From positions 7,372-71,371 of the forward strand of contig CAYNVS010000002.1 of the NCBI GenBank assembly GCA_964400725.1: 64,000 nt of DNA, read 5' to 3'. This DNA is from an uncultured Myxococcales bacterium. GTDB taxonomy: Bacteria; Myxococcota_A; SURF-8; CAYNVS01. Both the position numbers and the translations under genes were made by a program. The stretch's first letter is position 1, and every line of letters starts with the position of its first letter. The notes below the pieces were generated by a model, which ran no database searches, was not told the origin of the DNA, and saw only the letters and a list, made by a program, of their open reading frames with translations. Shown one piece after another: positions 1 through 49,934 of this stretch.

Positions 1-2
1 GC

Positions 3-27121: not shown

Positions 27122-27157
27122 CGGTTAATTTCTAAAAAAATGCCGCGGAGAACGCTA

Positions 27158-29432: not shown

Positions 29433-29725
29433 GCCGCGGCATTAGTCAATGCAAGTCGCTTAACGAGTCCGTCAACGCGATCCGTATAAAGTTTTCTTAA
29501 TCCGCGGGACGGCGCGTTCGCCGCCCAATTGGATAACGACAATCTAGGCGCTTGCGAGCCGGGTTATTGACTTTCAATCCCTTCAAGATTTTGTTTTAAG
29601 GCTTCGGCGCGTCCTTCTACAAAAACGAAAATATGCCGCAATCGTTTGCGCGCTCGACAAGCGGTTCGCTTTGTGGTATATTCCTTACAATTTCTTCACA
29701 ATTATTAATCTTACGGAGACGCCGT

Positions 29726-31084
29726 ATGAAAAGCTCAACTTTTTTACGCTTAGCGCTCGCCGCGTTGACCGCAGCGTTTTTTAATTACGCCGACGCGAAA
29801 GATATGATTTTGGCTCCGTCCGATTCGGGCGACGCGCAGCAGACTTCAAAAAAAGAAAAGTTCAACGATCCGGTTCCTAAAATCGCCGTGATTACTTATA
29901 TGACCTACGAGGGAGCAAGCGCCGCCTACCACGACGCAAGCGATAAATTCGCGTCCGAACTGAAAGCTAGAGGAGCTATTGCGGCGGACCGCAACGAATT
30001 GTCCGGTCTGATTGAAGCCGGGCTGGAAAAAATTAAGGAAGGCAAGTTCGTCGATTCTTTTTCCAGCGCCTCCGCCGACTACGTTCTGCTTATAGACGGC
30101 TCGGTAAAAATGACCGACAAAAACGTAAACGAGCAAAAGCAAAATCTTTACGTCTCGGAATATACGGCGTACGTTTTTAATGTCGATACCGGCGACAAGG
30201 TAAACTCGCACATGCGCGCGGCCAAAGAGTTGGGCGACTCGCCAAAGATAAAGTTTACTGAATTGATTGATAAATATTTCAAAGAAACGGCGAATTGGGC
30301 GGCGGGAACCATTAACAGCCACAGAACGCGGGAGTTTACGGTCAAACTGACCGTAACCGGCGTGGAAGACGCCGATCACAACAACGACCTGCTTGAAAAC
30401 CTCGCCAACAATCCGAGGGTGGCGGAAGTCAGGGCCGTTAAATTGGCCAAAGGGAAAGATACGACGAGCGAATTCGACATTATCGTTAAAGGAATAAGCG
30501 CCGGCGCGCTGTCGAAAATCCTCAACGGTCAGGGGTACGGCCTGACTACCGAAAAAATAGAAAAAGGCTCCGTTTGGGCGCGTTACGACGCTCAAAAGGG
30601 TTTTGCGATAAAAATATACGTTTCGCTTTTCGACAACCTTACCAAGAACGCGGACAACGACAGATACGTCGATACCATGCCCGCAAAGTTTGAGGCCGAG
30701 CTTGAAAAGATTGATTTTATTTGGATAAAGCGATTTAAGGACGGCAGGCTCGACTTTCCGAAGGGGACAAACCTTAAAAAGGTTATGACGGCCGCGTCCG
30801 ACGAAACCGGCAATCCTTTCCTGCTCGCATGCGAGCTAAAAATAGGCGCGAAGGACAAAAAGGAACTTGCGGAATGCAAACTTTATTTTGCCGCAACCGG
30901 TCAGGCGGTTCACTCATTCGCGCTGGAAGGGCAATTTATGGACGCCGATTCCTTCGCGGGCCAGTTGTCGGCGCAGACAGCGGCGATAATGACCGCCGTG
31001 AAGAAAAAGTGCGCGTCTAAATTTTCCAAGCGGTTTCTCAAAGAGATGAGCCTTTACGAGAAAAACCTCCAGCCTAAAAAATAA
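29726..31084 (+). CDS. Secreted hypothetical protein
   Basis: The ORF track starts at 29633, but a typical signal peptide begins at the Met at 29726 (MKSSTFLRLALAALTAAFFNYADA). No known domain recognised. Sits immediately upstream of the giant gene. Confidence 0.5.
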   Translation: MKSSTFLRLALAALTAAFFNYADAKDMILAPSDSGDAQQTSKKEKFNDPVPKIAVITYMTYEGASAAYHDASDKFASELKARGAIAADRNELSGLIEAGLEKIKEGKFVDSFSSASADYVLLIDGSVKMTDKNVNEQKQNLYVSEYTAYVFNVDTGDKVNSHMRAAKELGDSPKIKFTELIDKYFKETANWAAGTINSHRTREFTVKLTVTGVEDADHNNDLLENLANNPRVAEVRAVKLAKGKDTTSEFDIIVKGISAGALSKILNGQGYGLTTEKIEKGSVWARYDAQKGFAIKIYVSLFDNLTKNADNDRYVDTMPAKFEAELEKIDFIWIKRFKDGRLDFPKGTNLKKVMTAASDETGNPFLLACELKIGAKDKKELAECKLYFAATGQAVHSFALEGQFMDADSFAGQLSAQTAAIMTAVKKKCASKFSKRFLKEMSLYEKNLQPKK

Positions 31085-31294
31085 AAATTATTTCAAATTT
31101 GCAAATACAGGCCAAGGGATTCGCTGCGGCTAAATAAGAATATTATTCTGATTTTATTGTCTAATAGTAAAAGTAGCCTTGTATTTTTGACTAAGCGATT
31201 AAAAAATTATAGACTTAAGTAAAATGTTGTAAGAACCATGCGCCGTTTGCATTATTAAATGCTTTAACGCGGTTAGCGCTTTACGGAGGGCCTC

Positions 31295-34200
31295 ATGCTG
31301 CCTAATAGTTTGCGTTTGGGTTTTGTTTTTTCATTTTTGGCCGGTTTTGGAGCGTTAGCGGTTTCGTGCAATATGCCGCTGGATATTCAGCCGGACGTAA
31401 CGATTACGTGCAAATCCGATTCGGACTGCCCCGGCGGATACACTTGCAAAACGGAAATAGGCTGCGTGCTCGCGACCGGCGGAGACAAAACCGCGCCGCA
31501 GCTTTCGGAAAAAACCTTGACTCCGGCGACGGTCAAAGCCGACGGAAAAATCTCGGCCGGTTTTACGGTTGACGAACGGCTTTTTATGACTCCCAAAGTC
31601 GTATTTAAAAAGGGAGAAACCGTCGGCGGCGAATTTACGGTCGTTAAGGAGCCGAAGGCGGACGACGCCGAGCAGAAATACGCTTTTGAATATTCCGTCA
31701 AGGGAAACGAAACCGAAGGTTCGATGAACGTCGCGGCGGAAGGCGTCGTCGATAAAAGCGGCAATACGCCCGGAGAGATTATATTGGGTGAAGTAACTTT
31801 TGATTTTACGCCGCCTCAGATAGCCAGCTGCAGCGTAAGCGAAAACGCCAACAAACCCGCGAAAGAAAGCGACGCCTTAGAGGTTAAGATAGGCGTCACC
31901 GAAGAGCTTGGCGCGGATCCTGCGGTTATTCTAATCAACGCCGATTCGAGCGACGGAGCGGCATTTTTTAAAACGAACTACGATTCGGTCTCGAAAGTTT
32001 ATACTTATTCTCTCGCGGTCGATAAATCTATGGGCGAAGGGGCGCGGGGGTTGAGAATTAAAATGAGCGACGCCGCGGGAAACAAAAAGGCGGTCGATTT
32101 CGCCTCGGCATGGTCGTTCGATTTCACGCCGCCCGCGCTTGTAAATTCGCAGGTCGCGCCTGAAATAGCCGGGCCGTCGGCCAGCGTCTCGGCGCAGTTC
32201 GACGCCAGCGAAGAGCTTGCCTTCGTCTCGTCGGTCGTTCTCTCCTCGGACGCTTCGGGCGAGGAAGAGATCGAAATGGAGCTCGCAGGCGCTCCTGTTG
32301 GGCTGCATTACGCGTACCGCTACGACGCGAAGAAAATTTCCGATAAAATAACGAAAATTTACAAAGTCATCGCGAAGAAAATCGCGGATAAAGCGGGGAA
32401 TGAAACTGAGAGCGTAGAGATTGGAACCGTAACGATCGACACGATTCCGCCCAAATTTACGGGAAATCCGGTTTCCGTAAACAAAACGCGCTTCAAGGAA
32501 AGCGAGGAGCTGATTGTTTCATTTACGGCGGACGAGACGCTTTTATCGGCGGCGGCGTACGTCGATTTCGGGAGCAGGCGCGTCGAGCTGACCAAAAAGT
32601 CGGTTTCGCAGGACGGCCTTACTTTCGAGTATTCGCACGTCGCGGCGTCGGACGATCCGGAAGGAAGCGGAATGGTCGCCGTGGTAATTACCGACCTTGC
32701 AGGCAACAACGGAGAAGAGGCGCGTATCGGGCCGGTAATATTCGACTTCACCGCGCCCTCGGTAATGAGCTCAGACGCCCAGCCCGCATTCGCCAAGCTG
32801 TCCGATTCCCTGTATTATTCTCTCACCGCCAGCGAGGAAATCGCCGAGGCGCCGACTCTTATCGTCAACCCGCCTCTCGATCTCGGCGCCGCCGAGAAGC
32901 AGAGCGGCTCGAACGCGTACGTCTGGCGCCTTAAAATCGCCGACGGCTCGCTTGACGGCTCTTACGAGGTAAAGGCGGTTTTCTGCGATTTGGCGGGAAA
33001 TTGCGCTCCGCAGGAGGGGCTTGCGGCCAAAGGGTTCCGCATCGACGGAACTTTGCCGAAAATTACCGAGCCTAAAGTTTATCCGCAGCTTGCCAAGGAA
33101 GGCGACGAAGTTACGGTGGAATTCGTTCTTGACGACAAGCTGTCGGGCGATCCTTCGGTTAAAATCGGCGGCGCGCCGGCCGATTCTTTTACCTTCGACG
33201 ACCGGACGAAAACGTATAAGTTTATTTACGCCGCAAAAAAAACCGACCGCGACGGAGTTAAAAACGTTTATATTACGGCGACCGACGAAGCGCTCAATTC
33301 GACGAGCGAGCTTTTAAGCCAGACGGTCGCTTTCGACTTTACAGCGCCCGCGGCGATAAGCGCCTACGCGACCCCTTCCAAACAAAAAGTCGGCGGCGAC
33401 GTCGTAATTACGATTACCGTCAGCGAAGAGCTGTCGCAGACGGACGGAATAACCGTAACTATAAATCCGCCGTTGTCTTTAAAGTCCGGCGCGCCGCTCG
33501 GCAGAACCTACGTTTATACGCATAACGTCAAGGACGAAGACGCCGCTGGAATCTACTCGTTCGCCGTCGCGCTGAAAGACGCCGCCGGAAACGATTCCGG
33601 CGAATTGACCGACGCGGCGTGGACTTTCGAGATAGACAAGACGACGCCCGAAGTGAGCGACGTCGAGGTGGGACGCAAAAACGAAGCGGGCGAAATAGTC
33701 GCCGGTTTTATTAAAGGCGGCGACGTTCTATGGGCGCTCTTTAAAGTAAATAAAGAGCTCGCTCAGGAGCCGATAGTAAAATGCGGCGACCTTTTAATGA
33801 ACGGCGGATTTAACGAAGAATCCGGCCTTTACGAGTTTTCTCGTCCGATCGCTTCGTCGGACGCGGACGGCTCCTTCGCCGTTACGACGGAGCTGAGGGA
33901 TAAAATAGGGAACGTGAAATTTTTCAATCTCGGCGCGGTAACCATCGACAATCTGGCTCCGTTCGTCGCGGATTCCTCGGCTCAGCCTTCTTTCGCAAAG
34001 CTGTCCGCCATGGTCGTTCTCACAATTACCGCCAACGAGCTGTTGGACGAGTCAACCCTCGCGCTTTTAGTCGAGCCGAAAGACGGCTCCAACGGACTCG
34101 CCGAGGCTTTCGTTTACGCGGGACGGTCGGGGCTTAGCTATTCCTACAAACGCAAAATCGCCGACGAAGATTCGGCGGGCGAGTACGCCGCGAAAATCAA

Positions 34201-37200
34201 ATTCTGCGACCTCGCCGGTAATTGTTTGGAAAATTACCAAAACATACAGGGTTTCACCGTTGACAAGACGGCTCCGGAAGTAACCGACAAACTAGTCGAG
34301 CCGCAAAAAGCCAATTTGAAGGAAGGCGACGCGGTAAAGGTAAGTTTCAACGTCGCTAAACCGCTCGAAACCCCTCCCGTAGTCGCGCTGGGGAAATCGA
34401 CCATGACGCTAGCCGAAACGCCGGACGAAGGTTACGTTTACACTTTTAACTATACCGTTAAAAAAGAAGACGGCGAAGGCGTCGCGCTGGCAATGGCCGA
34501 GCTTCACGATCAAGCGGGCAACGTCAAGTTCGAGGAGCTCGCCCGTTTCCGTTTCGATTTTACCAAGCCCTACATCGTTTCGTCGGTTCCTCAGCCCCCG
34601 TTGGGAAGGGCTAACTCGGTTATAATATACTCTTTAACGGTCAGCGAGGAGCTTGCGGGGAACCCGGCGCACATCCTCGTTCCGCAGTCGCCCGACTTTG
34701 CCGGACCGACGGCCAACGGCGCGGAATTCCGTTACTCTTACTACGTTGCGGAATCGACGCCGAAAACGAAGTACGAGCTTAAATTCGACTTATGCGATTT
34801 GGCCGGAAACTGCGCGTACGGTTTAGACGCCTCTTCGTTCGAGGCCGACGGAGTCGCGCCTTGGTATTACGATCTTGAAATTCCGCAGACGCTTTTCAAA
34901 CGAGGCGAAACGGTCGTCGTAAGGTTTAAGGCGTCCGAGGAGCTCGCCAAAGAGCCTGCGGTAATTCTCGGCTCGATTCAAATGGATTTGAATTCTTCCG
35001 ACGGTCTCGCCTTCGAGTACGTCCACCAAACCGATCAGTACGACCTCGACGGTTCGTATCAAGTCAGAATAGAGCTTGAGGATAAAGCGGGCAACCAATT
35101 TTCCGTCGTCGCCGGAGGGAACGTCGTTTTCGACTTTTCCAAACCCGGCGCAGCGAGCGCGGGCGCAAGCCCCGACCCCGCTAAAAAGGGCGCGGAGATT
35201 AAGTATCTCGTAACTTTGACGGAACCGATAGCAAACGAAGTCTCCATGACCGCCGCAACCATCGACGGCGCGGGCGCGGTTATCGACTTTGGAAAAGCGT
35301 CGGCCAACGGCTTGAACCTTGTATGGAAAAAAACGGTCGGCGCGAATTTTGTCTCCGGAGAATACGGCGTTACGCTCGACTCGCTTTGCGACGCGGCGGG
35401 AAACTGCGACTTTAACGTAAAGACAACCGGCTTCGTCGTAGACGTCTCGCCTCCTTCTATCGCTTCTTCCCCCGCATTTTCGCTGACTCCCGCGGCCGGA
35501 ACAAAACTCAAAAAAGACGACTCGCTTACGCTTTCCTTTTCCGTAACCGAAGATATGAAACAAATGTACGGCGGAACCGGACTTGCCGAAGGGTATCCCA
35601 TCGTCCGAGCGGGATCGTACGAAGCGAATCAGGTTCAGGCCGCCGAGGGCTTCGACTATACTTTCGTTTATCAAGCCAAAGGAACCGAGTCCGAAGGAGC
35701 CGCCGGAGTCGTCGTCGAGCTCATGGACAAAGCGGGAAACACCGCGAGCTTCAACCTCGGAGCGTTCGTCTTCGATTTCACGAAGCCGATTCTGCTTTCC
35801 TCGTCCGCGGCGCCGAAGAACGCCAAGGCCGGAACGCGGATAGTTTACGAAATTTCGACGAGCGAAAAATTGAAACAACCGCCCGCGCTCGTAATCGGCG
35901 GAACGAAACAGCTTAATTTCGTTTACCTTGAGGGAACTACCTATAAATTCGAGTACACAGCGGCTTTGAACGATTCGGGCGACTACTCCGCTACGATTTC
36001 GCTCGTTGACGAGGCCGGCAACGAAAACAAAGGTCTCGCCGGCGACGCGTTTAAAATCGACGCGATCGTTCCGACTCTTGCCAACGCCTCGACCGACCGC
36101 GCGAAATACAGCAAGACGGAGGGATACAACCTCGTAACTTTGAAATTCGACTTGAGCGAAGACGTCGGCGCGGGGCTGTCGGTCAAACTTTCGGGCGAGG
36201 ATATGACCTGCAACGCCTACCAGCCGGGAGCGCGCGACAACCATACCTGCACATACAACGCAACGACGAGTTCGCAGAGCGAAGGAACCAAAAACATAAT
36301 AATTACCGCGACTGACGCCGCTGGAAACTCGGCGACTTCAAGCGTTGCGGTCGCATTCGACTTTACCAAGCCGACGCCTCTGTCCTCTTCGGTTTCTCCG
36401 AAAAACGCCAAAGAAGGAGCGTCGATTGTTTATGAAATCTCGCCCAGCGAGCCGCTCCTTTCGCCTCCGGTTCTTTACGTCGCCGGCCCTAAATCTCTTA
36501 ATTTCCAGCGCATCAACGGAACGACTTACAAGTTCGGCTATTCGGCGAAATACGGCGACGACGGCGATTATTCTGTTGTATTCGACTTGACCGACGAGGC
36601 CGGCAACGAAAACAAAGGTCTCGCCGGCGACGGGTTTAAAATCGACGCGATCGTTCCGACTCTTGCCAACGCCTCGACCGACCGCGCGAAATACAGCAAG
36701 ACGGAGGGATACAACCTCGTAACTTTGAAATTCGACTTGAGCGAAGACGTCGGCGCGGGGCTGTCGGTCAAACTTTCGGGCGAGGATATGACCTGCAACG
36801 CCTACCAGCCGGGAGCGCGCGACAACCATACCTGCACATACAACGCAACGACGAGTTCGCAGAGCGAAGGAACCAAAAACATAATAATTACCGCGACTGA
36901 CGCCGCTGGAAACTCGGCGACTTCAAGCGTTGCGGTCGCATTCGACTTTACCAAGCCGACGATAATTACAGCGGGCGTTACGCCTCTTCACGCCAAGGAA
37001 GGACAGAAAATTTACTATGAATTAACGCCGGACGAACCGTTGGCTTCGGTTCCGGATTTTACCGCGCTAGGCCCTTCCCAACTTAATTTCTTTTACGTCG
37101 GCGGCACGGCGTATAAATTTATGCACAACCCGTTTAACGGCGGGGACGGTCATTATACGGTCGAGATAACGCTTATCGACGAAGCCGGAAACAAGGCCGA

Positions 37201-40200
37201 AAACCTGACGACCGATAAAACGGGCGCCGCTTTGCCGGCTTTCAACATCGACACCGCGATACCGACGATAACCGGAATGAGAATCGTTAATAAATCGCTG
37301 GGAACTACGGCGGATTCGTTCAGCGCGCAGCCGGGTTACAACGAAATTTCTCTCTTTTTCAAGGTGGCCGAAAATCTGGGGCCGGGCGCGTCGGGTTTAA
37401 CGCTTTACATTAATATTCCAAACGGAGACGACGCTTTCGAGCTGGTGAACCGGGCGAACAATCCCGACGGCACGGTCGATTACGAGTTCAAGCACGAAGT
37501 AGTTTTGGCCGACGGCGAAGGAATGCGCACGATTTCGGTAACGACCGCCGACGCCGCTGGCAATTCGGACTCCGGCCAAGCCAACCTGACCTTCGACTTT
37601 ACGCCTCCCCGAATTGTCTCCTCTTCGGCGAGCCCCAACCCGGCCGGAATGTCGGCGACGATTAAATACCAGATAACCGTTTCCGAGCCTTTGGCGCACT
37701 ATCCTCAAATGTCCGCAAGCCCGCCCACAAGCGAAGGCGGCTGGGACTTAATAGCCGATTCCGCGCTGTCTTACACGTACAGGCACGTCGTAGCGGCTGG
37801 CGACACCGGCGACTATTTCGGCTCCATAACAAATTTATGCGACAAGCTGTACAACTGCGCCTCCGCCGCGCAAATCGGCGACGGCTTCTCCATCGACGCC
37901 ATTAGCCCGCAGGTGGCGGGCAAGACGATGGAGCCGGACAGCGGCTCCTATTTGAAGACCGGAGGACGCGTTAAAGTAAACTTTATAGTCAACGAAAATA
38001 AAGAACTCGACGGCTTCCCCTCCGTCAAGCTCGGCCCATTCGCTATGATTAGGCAGATACCTAACGACGTCGGGTTCCAGCATACCTATTATTACGATTT
38101 CGGCGGAAGCGAACCGGAAACGATGTACGTCGCGCTGATAGAGCTTCGAGACAAGGCGGGAAATCAGTCCAGCACGGCCGCCGGCAACGTAATATACGAT
38201 CGGACAAATCCGAGCGTGATAAGCGCCAACCCCAGTCCGCTTTACGCCAAGAAGGGGGATACGCTTTATTACGACATTCTGACGAACGAACCGCTCGGCT
38301 CGCATCCGACCGTTGTGGTCGAGCACGAGACTCTCGGCGTTATAGCGGACTTTTTTGATTACGTGGCCGATACGTCGTATAAATTCTCGCGTTTGATAGG
38401 CGCCGGAGACGCAAACGGCCGTTACAGAGTTTATATTACAATTTACGACAAGGCTCTGAACTCGTACTACACGGACGCCGGAAGCGGTTTCAACGTAGAT
38501 ATAACGAAGCCGGAAATCTCGAACGTGGAGCTCAACGGCGGAGCGACGCATCTGTTCAGCGACGCGATGAACCACGACCTTATGGAGATAAAGTTCGACG
38601 TTTCGGAAAATCCGTACAATCTTGAAGTAACGCTCGACAGTCAGGAGCAGATATTTGGAACTACTTGGCTGGACGGATCGGTTTACAAAAACGTTTTCTA
38701 CAAGCAGGTCGAAAAGGCGTTCGGAGAAGGAACGCATATTATCGCGATTAAAACGCTCGACGCGGCCGGGAATTCCGACTTCAAATCAATCGCCGCCACC
38801 TTCGACTTCACCAAGCCCGACCTCGTTTCCGGCTCCGCCGCTATGCGGTACGTGCCGGGAAGCGGCAACATGCTGTCCAATCCGAAGGGCGCGAAAGTCG
38901 GCACCAAAGTCGACGTATCGTTCATCGTAACCGAGCTTCTAAGCCAAAACCCAATCGTTTCGTTCGGAGGAATTTACCAATTCAAGCTGACGAGCGCGCT
39001 CAGCTACGCTTACCAATACGAATACGAAACGAAGGCGAATCCGCCGGAAGGAGCATGGACGGTTCAAGCGAAACTTTACGATTTGGCCGGAAATATGAAC
39101 GAGATTAATTTCCCGTTCGACCCTCTGGTTATAGATTCAACTCCTCCGTCCGCGCCCGACACCGCTACCGACGGCATGGTCGTAATAAAGCGCGTCCCAT
39201 GGGGAGCCGAAGAAACGGACTACAACGGAGAGCTGCACGCGGTATTCGCGCCCGCGTCTCTCGATGAAGGAACTTACGTAAATATTTGGGAATCGGCCGT
39301 GAAAACGACGCCGATGTACACGGGGCAAATTGAAGCCAACGGCGGAGCCGACTTCAATTTGGGTTACGTCGATAAAACCGGATTGTGGGTTTCGGCGATG
39401 GACGGTTCGGGCAACGAGTCGCCCAGAGTAAAAATTTACGACGGGAAATGGATCGCCACGCTCAACGGAAAAATCGCCGGATCGCGCTATGAAAATCCTC
39501 ACAACCTTTTATACGCAAACCATAACGTCCTGCTGAATAACGCTTCGACGCCCATAGCCGGCTGGCCTGCGCCCGACCAATTCCTTTCCGAAACGAAACA
39601 GTCGAAACTGGACGCGCTTTATTTCAAAGGAGACGGGAACAAGGCGGCGCATTATACGGCCGAGTGTCTCGCGTGGGTGAACGACATACCGAGAACCGAC
39701 AGAGCCAAGTTCGAGCCGTATAGAGGAACTTTCTCGGAATGGACGGCGAACAGCGGCGGCAGCGAGGCGGTTCTCTCCAAAGGGTTCGAGGCCGGCAAAC
39801 GCCTCAAAACTTTGGTGAATTTTTCGGAAAACGGAACGTACTCGTGGGCTGATTTCGTTGCGGAGCTTATAAACCCCGACTGCCAGTATTTCGGCTACAA
39901 CGGCCATTCTTCCATAAGATACGACTTCTGCACCGCGGTATCAATATCTATCGAAACGACCGATACGCCGCCGGTTCGCGCTCAAGCGTCGATGATTTAC
40001 CTGCCGAAAAAGGCCAAAGCCTTCATGTTCGGCGGGACGGGACTTGGCGGAGCCGAGCTGCGCGACGCGTGGCTGTGGGACTCGCTGGGCTCGCAATGGA
40101 TCGTCCTGCCGACGACGAACGCGCCTTTCGGACGCGAAAAACCCGCGCTCGCCTACGACGACCATAACGACAGGGTTTACATGTTTGGCGGCAGCGCGGA

Positions 40201-43200
40201 CGGCGTGAATTACCGAGACTTTTGGTATTACGATTTCGCTCTTGAAGGCTGGGTTGAGGTGGAGAAAAACGGAGCATGGCCGGAAGCCAGACCCGAACCG
40301 GCTTTGGCGTACGACCCGGCGCGAAGGTTGATATATCTGACGGGTTATTCCGAGCCGGACGACGGACAGGTATGGACGTGGAACGGCGCCCAGTGGAACG
40401 CCGTCGGAAGCGCGTCGGGCGAGCGCTACTTCTTCAACCGCGCCAACGGCTATTTCTTCGGGTATTCTCAACGCGGCGGCGTCTTCTTCCCGGATACGAA
40501 CGACTATTTCCCGATAGTTTCGGAGTACAGCGGAGGCGCGTTGCGCGGAACTCCGGCTATTGCGGTCGATCCGAACGGCAAGACGTACCTCTTCGGCGGA
40601 AAATACAGCTATCCGTCTTGGCCTCAACAAAGCGCCGATCATTTTTACGAGCTCGATTTCTTCCAGACAAAGAAGATTAATCCGTCTAACAAGCCTCCCG
40701 GCGGCAGCGTAATTGCGAGCGCGTTCAACCCGTACTACGGCTACCTTATGGTCGTCGGCGCGGGCGACGGCAACCCGAATACCTACATTTACGACGGGAA
40801 CGACTGGACGCTTAAATCCGATTCGGCTCCAATGGTTACGACTTGGGGCGCGCTGGGTTACAATCCCGACGACAACTCGATGATTTTCTACAACAATAAC
40901 AAAACCACCTACCAATACGATTATGCGACGAACACTTGGCGCGAGGTTTGCGTTTCGGCCGAATGCGGACAATCTCTTCCGCCCGTCGGAGGATGGTTCG
41001 TGCAGGACGGAAAACGAAACAGGCTGGTTTACGCGGTAAACAACCCCGGCCCCGGAACCTCGATGAGCTTTTACCGCTGGGACGGAACCGCGGCTAAATG
41101 GAGCATTATTTGCAACGAACAGATTTGCAGCTTCCCGCTTTCCAACCAGATTCAGGAAATTTCCGAATTCAACGGCGGAACGCTGATAATCAACCCGACT
41201 TACACGCCTTTAGTCTGGAATTTCGACGATTTCTCGCTGCGGCAGCTTTGCGTGGACGAGGCTTGGACGGTTGATTCGGATTGGTACTGGTCGCACACGC
41301 AGAAAACCACTTTCTCTTACGCCAGAAACAGGCTTGAAAGCCTTTATTTCGGCGACACGTTCAGCACCGGCGGCATGATGGGATACTTTAAGCCGTACGT
41401 GAAAATCGGCGTAATGTCGGAAAGAAGGCCGAACGCGATGCTTTCCTTCTCGATCGCCGACGCGAAAATATTATCGAATTACAGCCGCGCAAAAATTAAG
41501 AACTTCATAAAAAGCATGACTCTCAAATTAACGGTCGGAGCGGAAAGCCGCTCGTCCGACGGATCGCAATACTTCGCCGGAGGGTACGTTTTCGCTTACT
41601 CGCCGCAGGGCGAAGTCTGGGTTCCTCTCGCTCAGTTCGCGGGAGTTCCCGGAAGCCTCGAAAACGTCTCGGCAACGGCGGGGCAGGACTTCGACTGCAA
41701 TAATCTGCCCGCCTTTACGCCCAACGAACATTACTATTTTAACGGCGGCAGAGCCTACTGCGCGGGGCTGGGGCTGACCGACTTAATAGGATACGACGGA
41801 ACGATTAAAATACTCGTCTCGCCCATAGGCGTAAACGGCTCGTTCGCCGGAGCGCAGGTCGTTTTGGATTACGCGGAACTGATTATCGACTACACCAGCG
41901 ATCCGTCGAACTGCGTTCCTTATTGCGAAAAATTCAGCTGCGCCGACGACGGATGCGGAAACCCCTGCCCGTGTCCGGCGGGATACTCCTGCGGCTCGAC
42001 CGGCTCATGCACTCTTTCAATTCCCGACGGCGACGAGGAAACCGACGGCGACGTCGAAGAGACCGAGGGAGAAACCGAAGTCGAGGAAGAAGCTCCGGCC
42101 TGCCCCAACGACGACCCCAACACGCCTTCGGCGATTACGCTTTCGAGCGGAATTCAGACGTTTACCGGCTCGACCTGCGGATGCTCGGACGATTACTCGG
42201 CGGGATGCGGCGGCGATCACGCTCCGGACGCGGTCTTTTTAATCTCCGCTCCGACCGGCGTCAAAGGTAAATTTACCGCGCAGGTTTCGGGCTTCGACAC
42301 GGTCATGTATATAGTCATAGACGATATGTCGAACAGCCCGATAGAATGCAACGACGACGCGGATCCGCCGGGCGGATACGGCAGCGCGCTTTCGGAATAC
42401 GAGCTTAAAGCCGGCGGAAAAGCGTATATCTTCATCGACGGTTACGGCGATTCGTGCGGCTCCTATACGCTCACCGTCAACGGAACTATAACCGGAACCT
42501 GCGGCAACGACGTATGCGCAACCGCCGCCGTCATTCCCGCGTCCAGTTCTGGAACGTATAATTATAACGGCGAGATGTGCGCATGTTCCGACCATTATAA
42601 TATAAACGGAACCTACGGAGTAAACGCCCGCGACGCGGTTTACGCCTTTACGACAAGCTCGACGCAGGACACGTGGGGCGAGTTCTCAAGTCTGGGAACC
42701 GGCTTTACCTCTATCGTTTCGCTTTGGGAAACGTGCCCGAATACCGGCTCTCCCGCAGCTTATACGTGGGGCGAAGGACAGAAAATTTCGAGACTTCTTA
42801 ACCGCGGCGCGACGTATTACGTAATGCTCGACAGTTATTGGTCGGATTCCTGCGGAGCCTATACCTTCGACGCTAAAATAGACCTGCTGAGCTGCCCGAA
42901 CGACACCTGCGCCGCGGCTACAATTATTCCTTTCGTAACGGACGTCGATAGGCATTACCGCAACAATTACTGCCCGTGCTCCGCGGACTATTACGCCTAT
43001 TTCGGCTACGATACGAAGGACGCGGTTTACAAATTCACCGTTCCGCAAAACGGCAGGAAATACCTGTTTACCGCCGATTTGGATTCCGATTACGGAAACG
43101 AGCTTTCGTTGTGGAACGGATGCCCCAGTTCGGCGTCGCAGGAGGCGAGGGACAGCGGCTGGGATAAAGTGTACATTTACAGTCTGCTGAACAATATGTT

Positions 43201-43708
43201 CGCGACGACGTATTACGTTCTGGTTGACGGTTACTCGTCCAGCGGCGGCTGCAACTACTACGATTTCAACGCCCGCATATCAGACGTTACGTGCGCAAAC
43301 GATACGAAAGCGTCGGCGACAACGATTTCGGGCTCGCCGGGAACGAACGTTTACAACGGCTACACCTACGCCTGCGTAAACAACTACAGCGGCTCCTGCG
43401 GCGGAGCTTCATACGACGCATTCTTCAAGTTTACCGGCAACGCCGGCTACGATTACAATTTTAAAATCGAGGGATATTTAGTCGGACGACCCGATTATAC
43501 CTACAGCCCGATTATTACGCTGTTCAAAGACGGCTCGCCGGAAGTTGAGATCGCCTGCTCGGCCGCATCCGGAAAAGAAACCGAGTTGACTCCCTCAATG
43601 ATCGGGACTCTTACGACGGGCGCAACGTATTATATCGTCGTTGACGGAGGAAGCGCCGGAGCTACTGTCGGAGGTTACAAACTGACAAGCTCGATAACGG
43701 TAAAATAA
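31295..43708 (+). CDS. Giant (4137 aa) cell-surface protein with >25 Ig-like domains, Kelch-type beta-propeller and four PPC-like C-terminal domains
   Basis: GGAGGG RBS. Signal peptide with lipobox-like LAVSC. Cys-rich N-terminal module (TCKSDSDCPGGYTCK). A ~100-aa repeat recurs, ending in the motif FDFT(K/A)P and containing D(K/E)AGN. Kelch-like repeats are present (FMFGG, VYMFGG, TYLFGG). A Cys-rich segment (CPCPAGYSCGSTGSC) is followed by four ~150-aa repeats with C-x-C-SDxY...DAV(Y/F)xFT resembling pre-peptidase C-terminal (PPC) domains. Confidence 0.8.
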   Translation: MLPNSLRLGFVFSFLAGFGALAVSCNMPLDIQPDVTITCKSDSDCPGGYTCKTEIGCVLATGGDKTAPQLSEKTLTPATVKADGKISAGFTVDERLFMTPKVVFKKGETVGGEFTVVKEPKADDAEQKYAFEYSVKGNETEGSMNVAAEGVVDKSGNTPGEIILGEVTFDFTPPQIASCSVSENANKPAKESDALEVKIGVTEELGADPAVILINADSSDGAAFFKTNYDSVSKVYTYSLAVDKSMGEGARGLRIKMSDAAGNKKAVDFASAWSFDFTPPALVNSQVAPEIAGPSASVSAQFDASEELAFVSSVVLSSDASGEEEIEMELAGAPVGLHYAYRYDAKKISDKITKIYKVIAKKIADKAGNETESVEIGTVTIDTIPPKFTGNPVSVNKTRFKESEELIVSFTADETLLSAAAYVDFGSRRVELTKKSVSQDGLTFEYSHVAASDDPEGSGMVAVVITDLAGNNGEEARIGPVIFDFTAPSVMSSDAQPAFAKLSDSLYYSLTASEEIAEAPTLIVNPPLDLGAAEKQSGSNAYVWRLKIADGSLDGSYEVKAVFCDLAGNCAPQEGLAAKGFRIDGTLPKITEPKVYPQLAKEGDEVTVEFVLDDKLSGDPSVKIGGAPADSFTFDDRTKTYKFIYAAKKTDRDGVKNVYITATDEALNSTSELLSQTVAFDFTAPAAISAYATPSKQKVGGDVVITITVSEELSQTDGITVTINPPLSLKSGAPLGRTYVYTHNVKDEDAAGIYSFAVALKDAAGNDSGELTDAAWTFEIDKTTPEVSDVEVGRKNEAGEIVAGFIKGGDVLWALFKVNKELAQEPIVKCGDLLMNGGFNEESGLYEFSRPIASSDADGSFAVTTELRDKIGNVKFFNLGAVTIDNLAPFVADSSAQPSFAKLSAMVVLTITANELLDESTLALLVEPKDGSNGLAEAFVYAGRSGLSYSYKRKIADEDSAGEYAAKIKFCDLAGNCLENYQNIQGFTVDKTAPEVTDKLVEPQKANLKEGDAVKVSFNVAKPLETPPVVALGKSTMTLAETPDEGYVYTFNYTVKKEDGEGVALAMAELHDQAGNVKFEELARFRFDFTKPYIVSSVPQPPLGRANSVIIYSLTVSEELAGNPAHILVPQSPDFAGPTANGAEFRYSYYVAESTPKTKYELKFDLCDLAGNCAYGLDASSFEADGVAPWYYDLEIPQTLFKRGETVVVRFKASEELAKEPAVILGSIQMDLNSSDGLAFEYVHQTDQYDLDGSYQVRIELEDKAGNQFSVVAGGNVVFDFSKPGAASAGASPDPAKKGAEIKYLVTLTEPIANEVSMTAATIDGAGAVIDFGKASANGLNLVWKKTVGANFVSGEYGVTLDSLCDAAGNCDFNVKTTGFVVDVSPPSIASSPAFSLTPAAGTKLKKDDSLTLSFSVTEDMKQMYGGTGLAEGYPIVRAGSYEANQVQAAEGFDYTFVYQAKGTESEGAAGVVVELMDKAGNTASFNLGAFVFDFTKPILLSSSAAPKNAKAGTRIVYEISTSEKLKQPPALVIGGTKQLNFVYLEGTTYKFEYTAALNDSGDYSATISLVDEAGNENKGLAGDAFKIDAIVPTLANASTDRAKYSKTEGYNLVTLKFDLSEDVGAGLSVKLSGEDMTCNAYQPGARDNHTCTYNATTSSQSEGTKNIIITATDAAGNSATSSVAVAFDFTKPTPLSSSVSPKNAKEGASIVYEISPSEPLLSPPVLYVAGPKSLNFQRINGTTYKFGYSAKYGDDGDYSVVFDLTDEAGNENKGLAGDGFKIDAIVPTLANASTDRAKYSKTEGYNLVTLKFDLSEDVGAGLSVKLSGEDMTCNAYQPGARDNHTCTYNATTSSQSEGTKNIIITATDAAGNSATSSVAVAFDFTKPTIITAGVTPLHAKEGQKIYYELTPDEPLASVPDFTALGPSQLNFFYVGGTAYKFMHNPFNGGDGHYTVEITLIDEAGNKAENLTTDKTGAALPAFNIDTAIPTITGMRIVNKSLGTTADSFSAQPGYNEISLFFKVAENLGPGASGLTLYINIPNGDDAFELVNRANNPDGTVDYEFKHEVVLADGEGMRTISVTTADAAGNSDSGQANLTFDFTPPRIVSSSASPNPAGMSATIKYQITVSEPLAHYPQMSASPPTSEGGWDLIADSALSYTYRHVVAAGDTGDYFGSITNLCDKLYNCASAAQIGDGFSIDAISPQVAGKTMEPDSGSYLKTGGRVKVNFIVNENKELDGFPSVKLGPFAMIRQIPNDVGFQHTYYYDFGGSEPETMYVALIELRDKAGNQSSTAAGNVIYDRTNPSVISANPSPLYAKKGDTLYYDILTNEPLGSHPTVVVEHETLGVIADFFDYVADTSYKFSRLIGAGDANGRYRVYITIYDKALNSYYTDAGSGFNVDITKPEISNVELNGGATHLFSDAMNHDLMEIKFDVSENPYNLEVTLDSQEQIFGTTWLDGSVYKNVFYKQVEKAFGEGTHIIAIKTLDAAGNSDFKSIAATFDFTKPDLVSGSAAMRYVPGSGNMLSNPKGAKVGTKVDVSFIVTELLSQNPIVSFGGIYQFKLTSALSYAYQYEYETKANPPEGAWTVQAKLYDLAGNMNEINFPFDPLVIDSTPPSAPDTATDGMVVIKRVPWGAEETDYNGELHAVFAPASLDEGTYVNIWESAVKTTPMYTGQIEANGGADFNLGYVDKTGLWVSAMDGSGNESPRVKIYDGKWIATLNGKIAGSRYENPHNLLYANHNVLLNNASTPIAGWPAPDQFLSETKQSKLDALYFKGDGNKAAHYTAECLAWVNDIPRTDRAKFEPYRGTFSEWTANSGGSEAVLSKGFEAGKRLKTLVNFSENGTYSWADFVAELINPDCQYFGYNGHSSIRYDFCTAVSISIETTDTPPVRAQASMIYLPKKAKAFMFGGTGLGGAELRDAWLWDSLGSQWIVLPTTNAPFGREKPALAYDDHNDRVYMFGGSADGVNYRDFWYYDFALEGWVEVEKNGAWPEARPEPALAYDPARRLIYLTGYSEPDDGQVWTWNGAQWNAVGSASGERYFFNRANGYFFGYSQRGGVFFPDTNDYFPIVSEYSGGALRGTPAIAVDPNGKTYLFGGKYSYPSWPQQSADHFYELDFFQTKKINPSNKPPGGSVIASAFNPYYGYLMVVGAGDGNPNTYIYDGNDWTLKSDSAPMVTTWGALGYNPDDNSMIFYNNNKTTYQYDYATNTWREVCVSAECGQSLPPVGGWFVQDGKRNRLVYAVNNPGPGTSMSFYRWDGTAAKWSIICNEQICSFPLSNQIQEISEFNGGTLIINPTYTPLVWNFDDFSLRQLCVDEAWTVDSDWYWSHTQKTTFSYARNRLESLYFGDTFSTGGMMGYFKPYVKIGVMSERRPNAMLSFSIADAKILSNYSRAKIKNFIKSMTLKLTVGAESRSSDGSQYFAGGYVFAYSPQGEVWVPLAQFAGVPGSLENVSATAGQDFDCNNLPAFTPNEHYYFNGGRAYCAGLGLTDLIGYDGTIKILVSPIGVNGSFAGAQVVLDYAELIIDYTSDPSNCVPYCEKFSCADDGCGNPCPCPAGYSCGSTGSCTLSIPDGDEETDGDVEETEGETEVEEEAPACPNDDPNTPSAITLSSGIQTFTGSTCGCSDDYSAGCGGDHAPDAVFLISAPTGVKGKFTAQVSGFDTVMYIVIDDMSNSPIECNDDADPPGGYGSALSEYELKAGGKAYIFIDGYGDSCGSYTLTVNGTITGTCGNDVCATAAVIPASSSGTYNYNGEMCACSDHYNINGTYGVNARDAVYAFTTSSTQDTWGEFSSLGTGFTSIVSLWETCPNTGSPAAYTWGEGQKISRLLNRGATYYVMLDSYWSDSCGAYTFDAKIDLLSCPNDTCAAATIIPFVTDVDRHYRNNYCPCSADYYAYFGYDTKDAVYKFTVPQNGRKYLFTADLDSDYGNELSLWNGCPSSASQEARDSGWDKVYIYSLLNNMFATTYYVLVDGYSSSGGCNYYDFNARISDVTCANDTKASATTISGSPGTNVYNGYTYACVNNYSGSCGGASYDAFFKFTGNAGYDYNFKIEGYLVGRPDYTYSPIITLFKDGSPEVEIACSAASGKETELTPSMIGTLTTGATYYIVVDGGSAGATVGGYKLTSSITVK
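36008..36961 (+). repeat. Two 369-bp segments (36008..36376 and 36593..36961) identical except for 1 nt, period 585 bp, inside the giant gene
   Basis: Direct comparison of the two segments shows only A/G differing, at the codon giving DAF vs DGF. Minus-strand artefact ORFs 35983..36213 and 36568..36798, and the starts of 34823..36244 and 36338..36829, are identical, which confirms it. Flanking repeat units are only ~50% identical. Confidence 0.9.
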
Positions 43709-43920
43709 AAAACGCCGATTCGTTCTCGAAGGGCGCCGAACGCGCGCGCCTTTCGAGGACGAAGAAGCGGCGGGCAGTTACGCGTCCTGCGTTTTTTCGC
43801 CCGGCTATAAAAATAGTCCCTTCAAAAAGCCGTTCATGCTTACGACGAACGCTCCGCTTTTAACGGAATAACTCTTTATTTTATTTTGGCGCGCATGACA
43901 AAACGGTTATAATATATTTT

Positions 43921-45216
43921 ATGAATACTAATCGACCGATAAAGATATTAGCGCTAATCGCCGTCGCAGCCGCGCTCGTCCCGCTTTTTTCCTGCAAAGA
44001 GAAAACCCAAGAGGATTTCTTCTCGCTGCCCAGAAGCAAAAAAAACGACCAAAAAGCGGGGCGCATCCCGTCGGAGTGCGACGACCCGAAGCATTTTGAA
44101 AAAATCGAAAAAGCCGCGGCGTTGAACGAAGAAGGCATGCAATACATGAACAAAGGCGATCTGGGGCAGGCCGAAACGCTGTTCAACGAAGCCTTGAAAA
44201 TCATTCCGGTTTACGGCGACGCGCGCTTTAACCTCGGCCTTGTTTACGCGCGAAAGAACATGAGCGACAAAGCGCTGGAAGAGTTCGACAAAGTGATTAA
44301 GGACGTTCCGGACTGGCCAGACGCTTACGTTAACAAAGCGACGCTGCTCATGCGCCAGCGCAAATACTCCGAAGCCGAAAAAAATCTGTTCGAGGCGCTC
44401 AAGCTCGACTCGACCGACCCCAACGGCTGGATAGCTCTGGGGCGGCTTTATTTCTCGGACAACAAACCCGACCGCGGCTACAACGCTTTCGCCGAAGGGA
44501 TTAAGCGCGCCCCCAAAGAATTGGCGCTTAGAACCGCGATGCTTGAAGAGCTGATTAACGCCCGCAAGTTCAAAGAGGCGGCGGCGGCGTGCGAGGAAGC
44601 GATTAAGGCGTTTCCGTCGGAGATTAAATTATACGAAACGCTCGTTCAGATTTACGTGGACGCGCGCAGCCTGGACAAAGCCGAGGAAACTTTAAAGTCG
44701 CCGGGAGCGTCCGCGATGGAGGCGAAGAAAAAAAGCTATTTTCAAGCGTTGATTTTGGAAAACCGAAAAAAGTACGCGGAAGCGATTAAAATTTACAGAC
44801 AACTAGTTGAAGAAATGAGCGCCGATACAGCGAAGCCGGCGGGCGACGACCGGCCGCAGGAAGAGAATGCTAAGCCCGAAACGAGCCTTCAAGGCGGCGT
44901 CAATCCCGAAAGAAGGCTTGCGGACATACGCGTTCATCTAGCCGGCGCCCTTTTTTATACGGGCAAATTCAAGGAAGCCGTAGAGACGCTTGAGCCCGCC
45001 AAAGGAAAGACCGACGATTCGTTTTATTTTATATACCTCGGAGCGGCGTTGATAAGCCTCAATAAGGGATTTGAAGCCGCCGCCGTGTACCAGGAATTTT
45101 TTAACAGCCCCAAAGCCGTCGAAAACCTCGTAAACACCAACCGTGATGAAATCATAGCGGCGATTGACGCTTTAAAGGCGGGCAAAAAGATTAAGCCGAT
45201 AGGGCTCGACAAATAA
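43921..45216 (+). CDS. TPR-repeat lipoprotein
   Basis: Signal peptide with lipobox LFSC. Multiple 34-aa TPR repeats (AETLFNEALKIIPVYGDARFNLGLVYARKNM...). Confidence 0.6.
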   Translation: MNTNRPIKILALIAVAAALVPLFSCKEKTQEDFFSLPRSKKNDQKAGRIPSECDDPKHFEKIEKAAALNEEGMQYMNKGDLGQAETLFNEALKIIPVYGDARFNLGLVYARKNMSDKALEEFDKVIKDVPDWPDAYVNKATLLMRQRKYSEAEKNLFEALKLDSTDPNGWIALGRLYFSDNKPDRGYNAFAEGIKRAPKELALRTAMLEELINARKFKEAAAACEEAIKAFPSEIKLYETLVQIYVDARSLDKAEETLKSPGASAMEAKKKSYFQALILENRKKYAEAIKIYRQLVEEMSADTAKPAGDDRPQEENAKPETSLQGGVNPERRLADIRVHLAGALFYTGKFKEAVETLEPAKGKTDDSFYFIYLGAALISLNKGFEAAAVYQEFFNSPKAVENLVNTNRDEIIAAIDALKAGKKIKPIGLDK

Positions 45217-45277
45217 AATCGCGCGGGTTTATTCATTGAGCCGCCGACGAGTTTGGGTCGGAATGCGAGGTTAAAAT

Positions 45278-46417: not shown

Positions 46418-46420
46418 AAC

Positions 46421-47662: not shown

Positions 47663-47677
47663 GCCGCAGCCTCTAAC

Positions 47678-48946: not shown

Positions 48947-49018
48947 CTTTTTTTCCTTTCGCAAAATATTTTGAAAAGAAAAATTTATTTTTGAGCTAAT
49001 GTCAAGAAAATATTGCGT

Positions 49019-49045
49019 CAAAAAAAGCGCCCGTCGGCGCCTAAA
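49019..49045 (-). promoter_or_regulatory. Orphan intrinsic-terminator-like hairpin in the lysC 5' leader (candidate attenuator or riboswitch expression platform)
   Basis: On the minus strand: AGGCGCC-GACG-GGCGCUU stem-loop followed by U8, about 70 nt upstream of the lysC ATG. There is no upstream minus-strand gene to terminate. Confidence 0.45.
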
Positions 49046-49243: not shown

Positions 49244-49263
49244 CAAAATTCGCCAGTCGGAGA

Positions 49264-49932: not shown

Positions 49933-49934
49933 CC

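Follow-up and report, generated by a model that had tools for sequence, protein, structure and literature searches.

A giant bacterial protein with tandem Ig-like domains, Kelch repeats and PPC-like units: a candidate lipid-anchored fibrillar adhesin

The giant gene and its assembly support

We analyzed a 64-kb stretch of DNA, hereafter the window, which carries a very large open reading frame at 31295..43708. It starts with ATG, encodes 4137 amino acids and has no internal stop codon. The gene and all of its features described below lie on the + strand. The mature protein has a computed mass of about 441 kDa and a computed pI of 4.5. An exact-sequence look-up of the protein returned no record. 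The original prediction placed it among the largest ORFs that a bacterial genome could plausibly have. This is not correct, as far larger predicted bacterial proteins are on record. They reach 85,804 aa (bioRxiv 10.1101/2023.11.21.568195), and 41,754 UniProtKB proteins over all life are 5000 aa or longer, with a sizable bacterial share (PMC11573180).

The gene is preceded by an AT-rich spacer of 210 bp (31085..31294), which is its probable promoter and 5′ leader. The GC content of this spacer is 33.8%, slightly above the approximate 30% estimated earlier, and is among the lowest 0.2% of the 210-nt windows in the 64 kb. By consensus match, the spacer contains one sigma-70-like site on the + strand (31187-31215, 9 of 12 matches). 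No Rfam family matched in the leader or elsewhere in the window, and a tRNA scan of the window, leader included, found none. A terminator-like hairpin followed by a T-run was found by consensus match at 43780..43800, 72 nt past the stop codon. With its own AT-rich upstream region and terminator-like site, the giant gene looks monocistronic.

The ORF upstream of the spacer (29726..31084) encodes a protein of 452 aa with a signal-like start (MKSSTFLRLALAALTAAFFNYADA). It had been described as a dedicated secreted protein. The ORF and its signal-like start do exist, but the word dedicated has no support: the protein is an orphan, the spacer with its promoter-like site lies between the two genes, and the homologues of the giant protein have different neighbours. 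The 452-aa protein had no match in Pfam or NCBIfam, and a database homology search matched only the protein itself; the other matches were non-significant (PHROG, E = 0.079; PDB, E of at least 0.38). Downstream of the giant gene lies a gene for a TPR protein that may be a lipoprotein. We considered it as a Slam-type surface-lipoprotein exporter and rejected this, as TPR_Slam was below its cut-off among generic TPR matches and the protein consists of TPR throughout and has no beta-barrel.

Independent short-read contigs from Logan and JGI (L084, L085 and L086, the last from JGI) matched the window at 19726-36037 (100%), 28212-32452 (100%) and 36250-51513 (99.99%). They confirmed 12,202 of the 12,414 nt of the giant ORF at 99.99-100%, with the frame intact all along. 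The segment 36038-36249 (212 nt) is supported by the window alone and lies inside copy 1 of a near-exact repeat of 369 nt. Copy 1 is at 36008..36376 and copy 2 at 36593..36961, with one mismatch between them at 36048. The repeat sits in a diverged 585-bp two-unit duplication, which comprises units 15-16 and 17-18 of the Ig-like array described below. At copy 1, the Logan contig stops 30 nt into the repeat, and the JGI contig begins inside it. L086 runs from the last part of copy 1 through the unique spacer and covers copy 2 completely. Thus, at least two copies of the repeat are real.

A near-exact repeat at which both independent contigs break, together with a segment supported by the window alone, might indicate that the ORF is partly an assembly artefact, with a collapsed, expanded or chimeric array, or that the gene is broken in the real genome. 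We consider this very unlikely. Outside the 369-nt repeat, protein identity between the Ig-like units is only 20-30%, and the giant gene contains no further DNA repeat that reaches 40 nt, so a general collapse is implausible. The giant ORF is real and uninterrupted.

Domain organization

Only two relatives with the layout of the giant protein were found. Both are uncharacterised and come from metagenomes: P0003, of 1221 aa, from Logan SRR31539051, and P0001, of 1349 aa, from a microbial mat (ENA ERZ922773). A search of genome contigs with aa 2615-4137 found no relatives. A search of metagenome contigs with aa 1300-2300 returned two irrelevant loci only (L087 and L088), each with a single Ig-like segment, from a low-GC organism.

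The protein begins with a lipoprotein-type signal peptide (aa 1-25; 31295..31369), MLPNSLRLGFVFSFLAGFGALAVSC25, in which a PROSITE PS51257-type pattern matches MLPNSLRLGFVFSFLAGFGALAVSC and places the lipobox Cys at position 25. This signal, which is the sole hydrophobic segment of the giant protein, had been missed in the original prediction. With Ala at -3 and Val at -2, the lipobox departs from the textbook L-[AS]-[GA]-C form. A Cys lies at the same position, at the end of the h-region, in both P0003 (…LLAAGC) and P0001 (…FFAAAC). The signal is followed by a four-Cys knob, C39-x5-C45-x5-C51-x5-C57 (aa 39-57; 31409..31465), which contains the N-terminal Cys motif quoted earlier (C39KSDSDCPGGYTCKTEIGC57). 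The knob is kept in P0003 (CQSNDDCPGESVCQVALGQC), and BLAST aligned aa 14-176 of the giant protein to residues 11-170 of P0003. In Pfam, it matched small disulfide-rich domains below threshold only.

The stalk (aa 66-2618; 31490..39148) is a tandem array of 25 bacterial Ig-like units, which are 95-115 aa long and each end in DxAGN…[F/I]DxTxP. An array of more than 25 such domains had been claimed. The array is real, but the number of units is exactly 25; a possible degenerate 26th unit after them was undetected by the internal profile. In Pfam, the whole protein scored 139.1 bits against Big_13 and 39.3 bits against Big_3_3 (cut-off 27 for both), with a weaker match to Big_3_2 and no match to Big_2 (PF02368). 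Taken singly, five of the 24 distinct units matched Big_13 (E <= 0.01). The NCBIfam model Ca_tandemer reached 35 bits, under its cut-off of 50. A profile of all the Ig-like units matched a solved bacterial Ig domain of SiiE (2yn3) with E = 1.6e-8. It also matched the RTX adhesin 5irb weakly and the Deinococcus hexagonally packed surface-layer protein 8cka non-significantly (E = 0.044).

Units 5-24 alternate between two types, A and B, which form a two-domain super-repeat. The average identity is 28% between units of the same parity and 20% between units of different parity (p = 2.5e-17). As the units are only 20-30% identical and the alternation has been kept, the sequences point to an old and maintained array, and not to a recent expansion or an assembly artefact.

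The stalk is followed by a connector (aa 2619-2860; 39149..39874), which opens with a degenerate Ig-like segment (…DGSGNES…). The connector is common to P0001 and P0003, with conserved R-x-P-x-G and D-x-x-G-N-x-S motifs. It had no match in Pfam, and a profile search of metagenome contigs with the connector alignment found no relatives. Next is the Kelch-repeat region (aa 2861-3330; 39875..41284), presumably a beta-propeller. A Kelch propeller had been predicted, and Pfam agrees on the Kelch region: PF24681 covered aa 2860-3330 with 69.2 bits (cut-off 50), and Kelch_4, Kelch_2 and Kelch_1 were also over their cut-offs (33.7, 25.3 and 25.0 bits against 21.6, 21.3 and 20.1, respectively). A blade profile detected only three canonical Kelch blades (aa 2909-3037); more degenerate ones were seen by eye only. 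We also considered a galactose-oxidase-like enzyme formed by the Kelch region and the next beta domain. This found no support, as only generic Kelch-repeat models and no enzyme family were matched.

The next segment is a beta-rich mid domain (aa 3331-3535; 41285..41899), which corresponds to the C-terminal domain of the short homologues. Weak alignments, with the common ending …LDYxExxxxY, were obtained to the C-terminal parts of P0001, of P0003 and of a tandem paralogue located in L083. It had no Pfam match, and a homology search with the mid domain alone found no database homologue. Its AF2 model, from an alignment of three sequences, was unusable (pLDDT 32). An eight-Cys linker (CVPYCEKFSCADDGCGNPCPCPAGYSCGSTGSC) and then an acidic spacer follow (aa 3536-3600; 41900..42094). 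The linker has a CGDDGCG-type motif, and the second Cys motif quoted earlier, CPCPAGYSCGSTGSC, was found at aa 3558-3572. The original prediction regarded the Cys-rich caps at the two ends as unusual. Both motifs are present, but they are not peculiar to this protein: the knob recurs in P0003, and the CGDDGCG-type linker motif recurs in P0100, an unrelated protein with a PPC array. Altogether, the giant protein has 61 Cys, mostly in local pairs, such as those of the knob and the eight-Cys linker, the four to six Cys in each PPC unit and the C-DLAGN-C of five A-type units. Such paired Cys fit an oxidising, extracytoplasmic compartment.

The protein ends with four units that resemble PPC (pre-peptidase C-terminal) and collagen-binding domains (CBD). 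Units 1 and 2 span aa 3601-3733 (42095..42493) and aa 3734-3865 (42494..42889), respectively. Unit 3 (aa 3866-3999; 42890..43291) was modelled by AF2, and unit 4 (aa 4000-4137; 43292..43705) runs to the protein end, with no hydrophobic tail after it. The mutual identity of the four units (aa 3601-4137) is 23-34%. No direct match of PF04151 (PPC) to any of the four was found, even at E <= 5, and one unit matched GBD_T9SS_assoc with E = 0.12. A weak PDB profile match was to the C-terminal domain of a Vibrio metalloprotease (2luw, E = 0.18). A profile of the four units retrieved 4253 representative proteins at E <= 1e-3. Among the top matches scanned, six of eight had PF04151 and/or PF23759 (GBD_T9SS_assoc) over the cut-off, and the array was at the extreme C-terminus in nearly half of the top matched proteins. 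The C-x-C motif of the four units was found in none of 597 related domains.

The AF2 model of unit 3 has eight strands (pLDDT 81, pTM 0.81), and its predicted structure is a beta-sandwich of the PPC/CBD kind. In a Foldseek search of the PDB, it matched the collagen-binding domains of ColG (s3b 1nqd) and ColH (3jqw) and the pre-peptidase C-terminal domain 5sv5 of a B. anthracis collagenase, with E from 1e-4 to 7e-4, probability 1.00 and target-normalised TM of 0.63-0.69. The C-terminal domain of the C. perfringens enterotoxin also matched. The best E-value was obtained with chlamydial Pgp3 (3.5e-5), yet at a lower TM (0.32-0.46). Profile search and predicted fold place the C-terminal units in the PPC/GBD family, and in sequence terms their domain is that of a large existing family. 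The four PPC-like Cys-containing domains of the original prediction are thus linked to PPC through profile intermediates and the predicted fold, and not by direct Pfam matches. The eight-stranded beta-sandwich predicted for unit 3 matches the structures of known PPC and collagen-binding domains. Unlike known PPC domains, the units of the giant protein have extra Cys and are carried by an Ig/Kelch protein, not by a peptidase.

The giant protein has most of its layout in common with its short homologues. P0001 and P0003 both have a Cys-ending signal, one to three Ig-like units with the DxAGN ending, the connector, Kelch repeats and the terminal beta-rich domain; only P0003 also has the knob. They are 22-30% identical to the giant protein and three to four times shorter, and their Kelch blades are more numerous and more regular. 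They stop after the mid domain, with neither the Cys-rich linker nor the PPC array, and their gene neighbourhoods are unlike that of the giant gene. From the shared layout, the giant protein looks like a member of the P0001/P0003 family in which the stalk has been lengthened and a tail of four PPC units added.

Anchoring, export and possible functions

The original prediction stated that the protein has no LPxTG, T9SS or MYXO-like tail. This agrees with our scans. No LPxTG was found in the giant protein, and there is no C-terminal hydrophobic tail, with a maximal 19-residue hydropathy of 1.02 in the last 100 aa. An NCBIfam scan (E <= 0.01) gave just two unrelated weak matches and no model of a C-terminal sorting signal (T9SS, PEP-CTERM/MYXO-CTERM). 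The lipobox signal means that the missing C-terminal sorting signal is no puzzle. Judged from the signal, the cell anchor is most likely N-terminal, with a lipid at Cys25. The C-terminal quartet, previously discussed as a non-standard anchoring module, would rather be a distal module. In the window, none of the scanned ORFs of at least 200 aa encodes a T1SS component (ABC transporter, membrane-fusion or TolC-like protein) or another secretion or surface-lipoprotein export protein.

The host is from a poorly sampled lineage. Its GyrA is 64% identical to that of the nearest representative genome retrieved, a Myxococcota MAG, and it is from this match that a diderm, Myxococcota-like envelope is suggested. 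An exact-sequence look-up of the GyrA returned no record. No paper was found that mentions the sample accessions SRR6476076, 3300022666 or Ga0248168.

We favor, with moderate confidence, the interpretation that the giant protein serves an uncultivated and possibly Myxococcota-like diderm as a fibrillar adhesin with an N-terminal lipid anchor. As predicted from the sequence, the protein would be exported by Sec, cut by signal peptidase II before Cys25 and then lipidated. The lipid would keep the N-terminus, with the adjoining four-Cys knob, in the outer membrane. The 25 Ig-like domains would form a stalk of about 270 kDa. If each Ig-like domain is taken to be 3.3-4.5 nm long, the stalk might extend for roughly 80-110 nm. 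At its distal end, it would carry a head of about 165 kDa, which comprises the connector, the Kelch region, the beta-rich domain, the disulfide-rich linker with the acidic spacer and the four PPC/CBD-like beta-sandwiches. The head may bind a polymeric ligand, either a glycan or a protein, on a surface or another cell, and four similar binding modules would add avidity. The ORF, its domain identities and the layout in common with the short homologues are established; lipidation, the location at the outer membrane and surface, the stalk length and the ligand-binding role of the head are all putative. We know of no route by which a 441-kDa lipoprotein crosses the outer membrane.

It is possible, but in our opinion unlikely, that the giant protein is an extreme member of an unrecognised family of lipid-anchored, Kelch-headed fibrils in Myxococcota-like bacteria. 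These would have an undescribed export route for giant lipoproteins and a head that recognises the envelope of prey or neighbouring cells. The hallmarks of that family would be the Cys-ending signal, the Ig-like units, the specific connector, the Kelch repeats and the new terminal beta-rich domain.

Also unlikely is a released or shed extracellular scaffold, in which the protein is cut from its anchor, or the PPC units are cut off, and matrix polysaccharides or proteins are cross-linked. PPC domains (PF04151) are typical of secreted enzymes, and the structural relatives of the units bind collagen or claudin. On secreted proteases, PPC domains often serve in processing or secretion and not in adhesion, which also counts against the adhesin reading. 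In addition, the Cys-rich linker and a probably flexible acidic spacer (aa 3573-3600) set the PPC array apart, and an S8 subtilase of 1500 aa is encoded 10 kb upstream of the giant gene. However, unrelated housekeeping genes separate the subtilase gene from the giant gene. Moreover, the short homologues have no PPC array and keep the lipobox-type Cys, which suggests that the conserved core is the anchored form.

The Ig array might also tile or coat the cell as an S-layer or sheath-like structural protein, without a projecting head. The DxAGN…FDFT ending does recall the Ig-like domains of S-layer proteins (SbsA/Big_5), and the protein is acidic (pI 4.5), like many S-layer proteins. The weak match to 8cka is in line with this, but it was non-significant, whereas the match to the SiiE adhesin was significant. 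No SLH or other S-layer anchoring domain was matched in Pfam or NCBIfam, and 4137 aa far exceeds the size of typical S-layer subunits. The single predicted lipid anchor lies opposite 1500 aa of binding-type domains without repeats, which is the layout of a stalk and a head. We therefore regard an S-layer protein as improbable.

We give very little credence to a structural protein inside the envelope, one that is held in the inner membrane, or in the outer membrane by its inner leaflet, without exposure at the surface. In favor of it, lipoproteins of model diderms mostly face the periplasm, no gene for surface-lipoprotein export was found in the window, and the downstream TPR protein is of a kind common in envelope assembly complexes. 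Against it, the periplasm is about 25-30 nm wide, and a 25-domain stalk, several times longer, would not fit in it. The +2 residue is Asn, whereas the retention rules are Asp at this position for E. coli and Lys for Myxococcus. Extracellular proteins are also where Kelch and PPC heads and disulfide-rich modules typically occur.

Comparison with known adhesins

By definition, a fibrillar adhesin has a repeat stalk with an anchor at one end and binding domains that are not repeats at the other (PMC8286594). In the giant protein, the stalk is present and the predicted anchor is opposite a non-repeat head, whose adhesive role is suggested by its relatives only. If the lipid-anchored reading is true, the giant protein is a clean case of a very long adhesin held by an N-terminal lipid, and it raises the question of how a 441-kDa lipoprotein gets to the surface. 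Better-known adhesin anchors are the T1SS plug, the autotransporter barrel and the sortase signal. The connector, the Kelch region and the terminal domain form a small unannotated family, which is a candidate for the domain databases. Many giant surface proteins combine Ig repeats with shuffled binding domains. On the favored reading, the giant protein is an atypical representative of an ordinary class, the bacterial fibrillar adhesins; all of its recognisable modules come from known families, and no new kind of system is involved.

The giant RTX adhesins secreted by type I systems, such as SiiE, LapA and MpIBP, also have a very long Ig-like extender; their ligand-binding modules lie close to the C-terminus, whereas it is the N-terminus that is next to the cell. 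Unlike them, the giant protein has no RTX nonapeptide repeats, with no GGxGxD motif anywhere in it, and no T1SS genes in the window. It has a Sec/SPII-type signal, whereas SiiE, LapA and MpIBP have an uncleaved N-terminal retention module. Thus, its anchoring and export logic seems to be unlike that of the giant RTX adhesins.

The lipoprotein-anchored Ig-array layout is established for the Lig proteins of Leptospira, which are surface-exposed adhesins (PMC7821625). Like the giant protein, LigA, LigB and LigC have an N-terminal lipoprotein signal and tandem, moderately similar bacterial Ig-like domains, and LigB and LigC also have a large non-repeat C-terminal extension. The Lig proteins have 12-13 Big_2 (PF02368) domains, whereas the 25 units of the giant protein match Big_13/Big_3-type models. 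The C-terminal extension of Lig has neither Kelch nor PPC, and the phyla differ. The giant protein thus stands outside the Lig family, but by analogy the Lig proteins are the best functional counterpart of its putative lipid-anchored Ig stalk.

Domain architecture of the giant protein

The giant protein begins with MLPNSLRLGFVFSFLAGFGALAVSC25, which matches the PROSITE lipoprotein pattern, and this N-terminal signal is its only hydrophobic segment. In its mature form it has a mass of about 441 kDa and a pI of 4.5. The signal is followed by a knob of four cysteines (C39, C45, C51 and C57) and, at aa 66-2618, by a stalk of exactly 25 units of 95-115 aa each, as delimited by boundary motifs and an internal profile. 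The units end in DxAGN … [F/I]-D-x-T-x-P, where D, N and D are invariant. Identity between units was 10-45%, except for units 15 and 17 (65%) and units 16 and 18 (100%). Units 5-24 were of two types in alternation, with a mean identity of 28% between units of the same parity against 20% between those of different parity (p = 2.5e-17). Five A-type units have a C-DLAGN-C pair. Pfam Big_13 scored 139 bits on the protein, with weaker matches to Big_3_3 (over cut-off) and Big_3_2; taken singly, 5 of the 24 distinct units matched Big_13 at E <= 0.01. The unit profile also matched Ig domains of known structure from the giant adhesin SiiE (2yn3, E = 1.6e-8).

Beyond the stalk lie a connector without a Pfam match (aa 2619-2860), a Kelch region (aa 2861-3330; PF24681, 69 bits, cut-off 50) with only three canonical blades, an unassigned beta-rich mid domain (aa 3331-3535), an eight-cysteine linker with an acidic spacer (aa 3536-3600) and four C-terminal units of about 135 aa each (aa 3601-4137; mutual identity 23-34%). 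The original prediction called these four units PPC-like (pre-peptidase C-terminal). Pfam PPC did not match them, even at E <= 5. A profile of the four units found 4253 proteins at E <= 1e-3 among 1.84 billion representatives, many with 4-19 tandem copies, and six of the eight top matches scanned had Pfam PPC (PF04151) and/or GBD_T9SS_assoc (PF23759) above cut-off. The AlphaFold model of unit 3 has eight strands (pLDDT 81, pTM 0.81); its PDB matches included the ColG and ColH collagen-binding domains (CBD), the B. anthracis pre-peptidase C-terminal domain 5sv5 and the claudin-binding C-terminal domain of C. perfringens enterotoxin. The best E-value was that of chlamydial Pgp3 (3.5e-5), but with lower TM-scores (0.32-0.46). 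Thus, the PPC-like label was right, because intermediate homologues carry these Pfam domains and the predicted fold of unit 3 matches. The C-x-C motif is private to the giant protein (0 of 597 related domains). In about half of the top-match proteins the array likewise lies at the extreme C-terminus, and none of the top 150 shared the giant protein's Ig, Kelch or mid regions.

Proposed role and alternatives

On balance, we lean towards reading the giant protein as an N-terminally lipid-anchored fibrillar adhesin, for which we infer lipidation, surface exposure, export route and ligand. A lipidated Cys25 would be anchored in the outer membrane, and the Ig stalk would point outward for about 80-110 nm, assuming 3.3-4.5 nm per Ig-like domain. 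With its Kelch region, mid domain and four PPC/CBD-like sandwiches, the distal head would bind avidly to a polymeric ligand. The paired cysteine pattern and the sheer length of the stalk argue for an extracellular location.

The protein might instead be a shed matrix scaffold, with which the spacer preceding the PPC array is consistent; we consider this possible, with a rather low probability. An S-layer-like coat seems less likely still, as the only such match, to HPI, was non-significant and there was no SLH domain. A periplasmic structural lipoprotein is improbable, since the stalk would exceed a fitting length.

The gene, its neighbours and its assembly

The open reading frame (31295..43708, + strand) runs uninterrupted from ATG through 4137 codons to the stop. 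The 210-bp spacer upstream (31085-31294) has 33.8% GC, compared with 54.5% in the gene and 53.7% in the window, and ranks in the lowest 0.2% of the window's 210-nt windows. The sole other part of the window with a 210-nt GC of 33% or less (24874-25120) is directly upstream of a kup potassium transporter gene. The gene looks monocistronic because consensus matches alone place a single sigma-70-like site on the + strand of the spacer (31187-31215), a hairpin and T-run 72 nt past the stop and a promoter-like site ahead of the next gene. Rfam and tRNA scans of the whole window gave no matches.

A 452-aa protein whose N-terminus resembles a signal is the product of the upstream gene (29726-31084, +). 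The original prediction called it dedicated to the giant gene, and we found nothing linking the two. It matched no Pfam or NCBIfam family, and its PHROG and PDB matches were all non-significant. With its own sequence as the sole match among 5.8 billion clusters, it is a true orphan. Downstream are genes for a TPR protein, an SDR/thioester-reductase-like protein, lysA, aspartate kinase and the ATP synthase operon. The TPR protein (43921-45216, +; 431 aa) is TPR throughout, with a possible lipoprotein signal (…VPLFSC) and no beta-barrel; against the TPR part of Slam surface-lipoprotein exporters it scored 33.8 bits, under the cut-off of 35.2. The window ORFs scanned included no T1SS, T2SS, T9SS or Slam-like genes.

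Another very large secreted-type protein, a 1500-aa S8 subtilase with a mycosin-like catalytic domain and MopE-type putative metal-binding motifs, is encoded 10 kb 5′ of the giant gene (17090-21592, +). Five ORFs of 261-691 aa (12866-14941, 15083-16165, 53353-54789, 54952-55737 and 55794-57680) have no Pfam match; two were also scanned against NCBIfam without a match, and two have signal-like N-termini. The gene at 8326-9498 (+), which follows one for a kinase/cyclase-like TPR protein, clearly belongs to the NCBIfam families TIGR04552/TIGR04562 (~340 bits), which are uncharacterised.

No tandem DNA repeats were found in the giant gene. Its only direct repeat of at least 40 nt is 369 nt long (36008-36376 = 36593-36961), with copies 585 bp apart and one mismatch (36048), which is nonsynonymous (Ala to Gly). 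This core sits in a two-unit (585-bp) duplication (35780-36965) whose flanks are only 55-68% identical, a pattern that suggests recent gene conversion among repeat units that are themselves old. Independent assemblies matched the window at 19726-36037 (Logan SRR6476076, 100%), 28212-32452 (JGI 3300022666, 100%) and 36250-51513 (a second JGI 3300022666 contig, 99.99%). Both short-read contigs recovered across the region break exactly at the repeat: the Logan contig ends 30 nt into copy 1, and the JGI contig begins within it. At least two copies are real, because the JGI contig holds part of copy 1, the unique spacer and copy 2; this count is a lower bound, and 212 nt (36038-36249) are supported by the window alone. 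An assembly artefact, which could affect only how many copies of one 585-bp unit there are, is very unlikely.

Relatives and known systems

Among 5.8 billion clusters, aa 2615-4137 had six matches, every one through the Kelch part. The layout recurs in two of them, the metagenomic proteins P0003 (1221 aa) and P0001 (1349 aa): a Cys-ended signal comes first, then 1-3 Ig-like units, the connector seen in the giant protein, Kelch repeats and finally a domain alignable with the mid domain. The four-Cys knob is present in P0003 as well. Both proteins end after the mid-type domain, and the giant protein thus looks like a member of their family whose stalk has been greatly lengthened and to which a linker and a tail of four PPC-like units have been added. 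Their gene neighbours are unrelated to those in the window. In a microbial mat metagenome (ENA ERZ922773; positions 1-4697 of its contig), P0001 comes after a tandem paralogue that has this Kelch region and terminal domain at its end; therefore, the family can occur as adjacent gene copies. No relatives of aa 2615-4137 were found among 185,579 species representatives, nor by two metagenome scans, one with the connector and one with aa 1300-2300. In a non-exhaustive search seeded on shared 8-residue peptides, the window's GyrA (2536-5076, -) was at most 64% identical to the GTDB species representatives retrieved, the best being a Myxococcota MAG, followed by Nitrospirota (58-60%). The source lineage seems to be sparsely represented.

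The gene had been ranked among the largest plausible bacterial ORFs; 4137 aa is unremarkable beside predicted bacterial proteins of up to 85,804 aa (bioRxiv 10.1101/2023.11.21.568195). UniProtKB lists 41,754 proteins of 5000 aa or more across all life, a considerable fraction of which are bacterial (PMC11573180). Each recognisable module has its place in a known family, and the protein as a whole follows the logic of a known class; this exact combination was found nowhere else, and neither the connector nor the mid domain is annotated. An RTX/T1SS adhesin was rejected because RTX repeats are absent and the signal is of the Sec/SPII type. The arrangement of predicted anchor, stalk and putative binding head agrees with how fibrillar adhesins are defined (PMC8286594). 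The Leptospira Lig adhesins are a lipoprotein-anchored parallel (PMC7821625), although their Ig subfamily and head are not the same.
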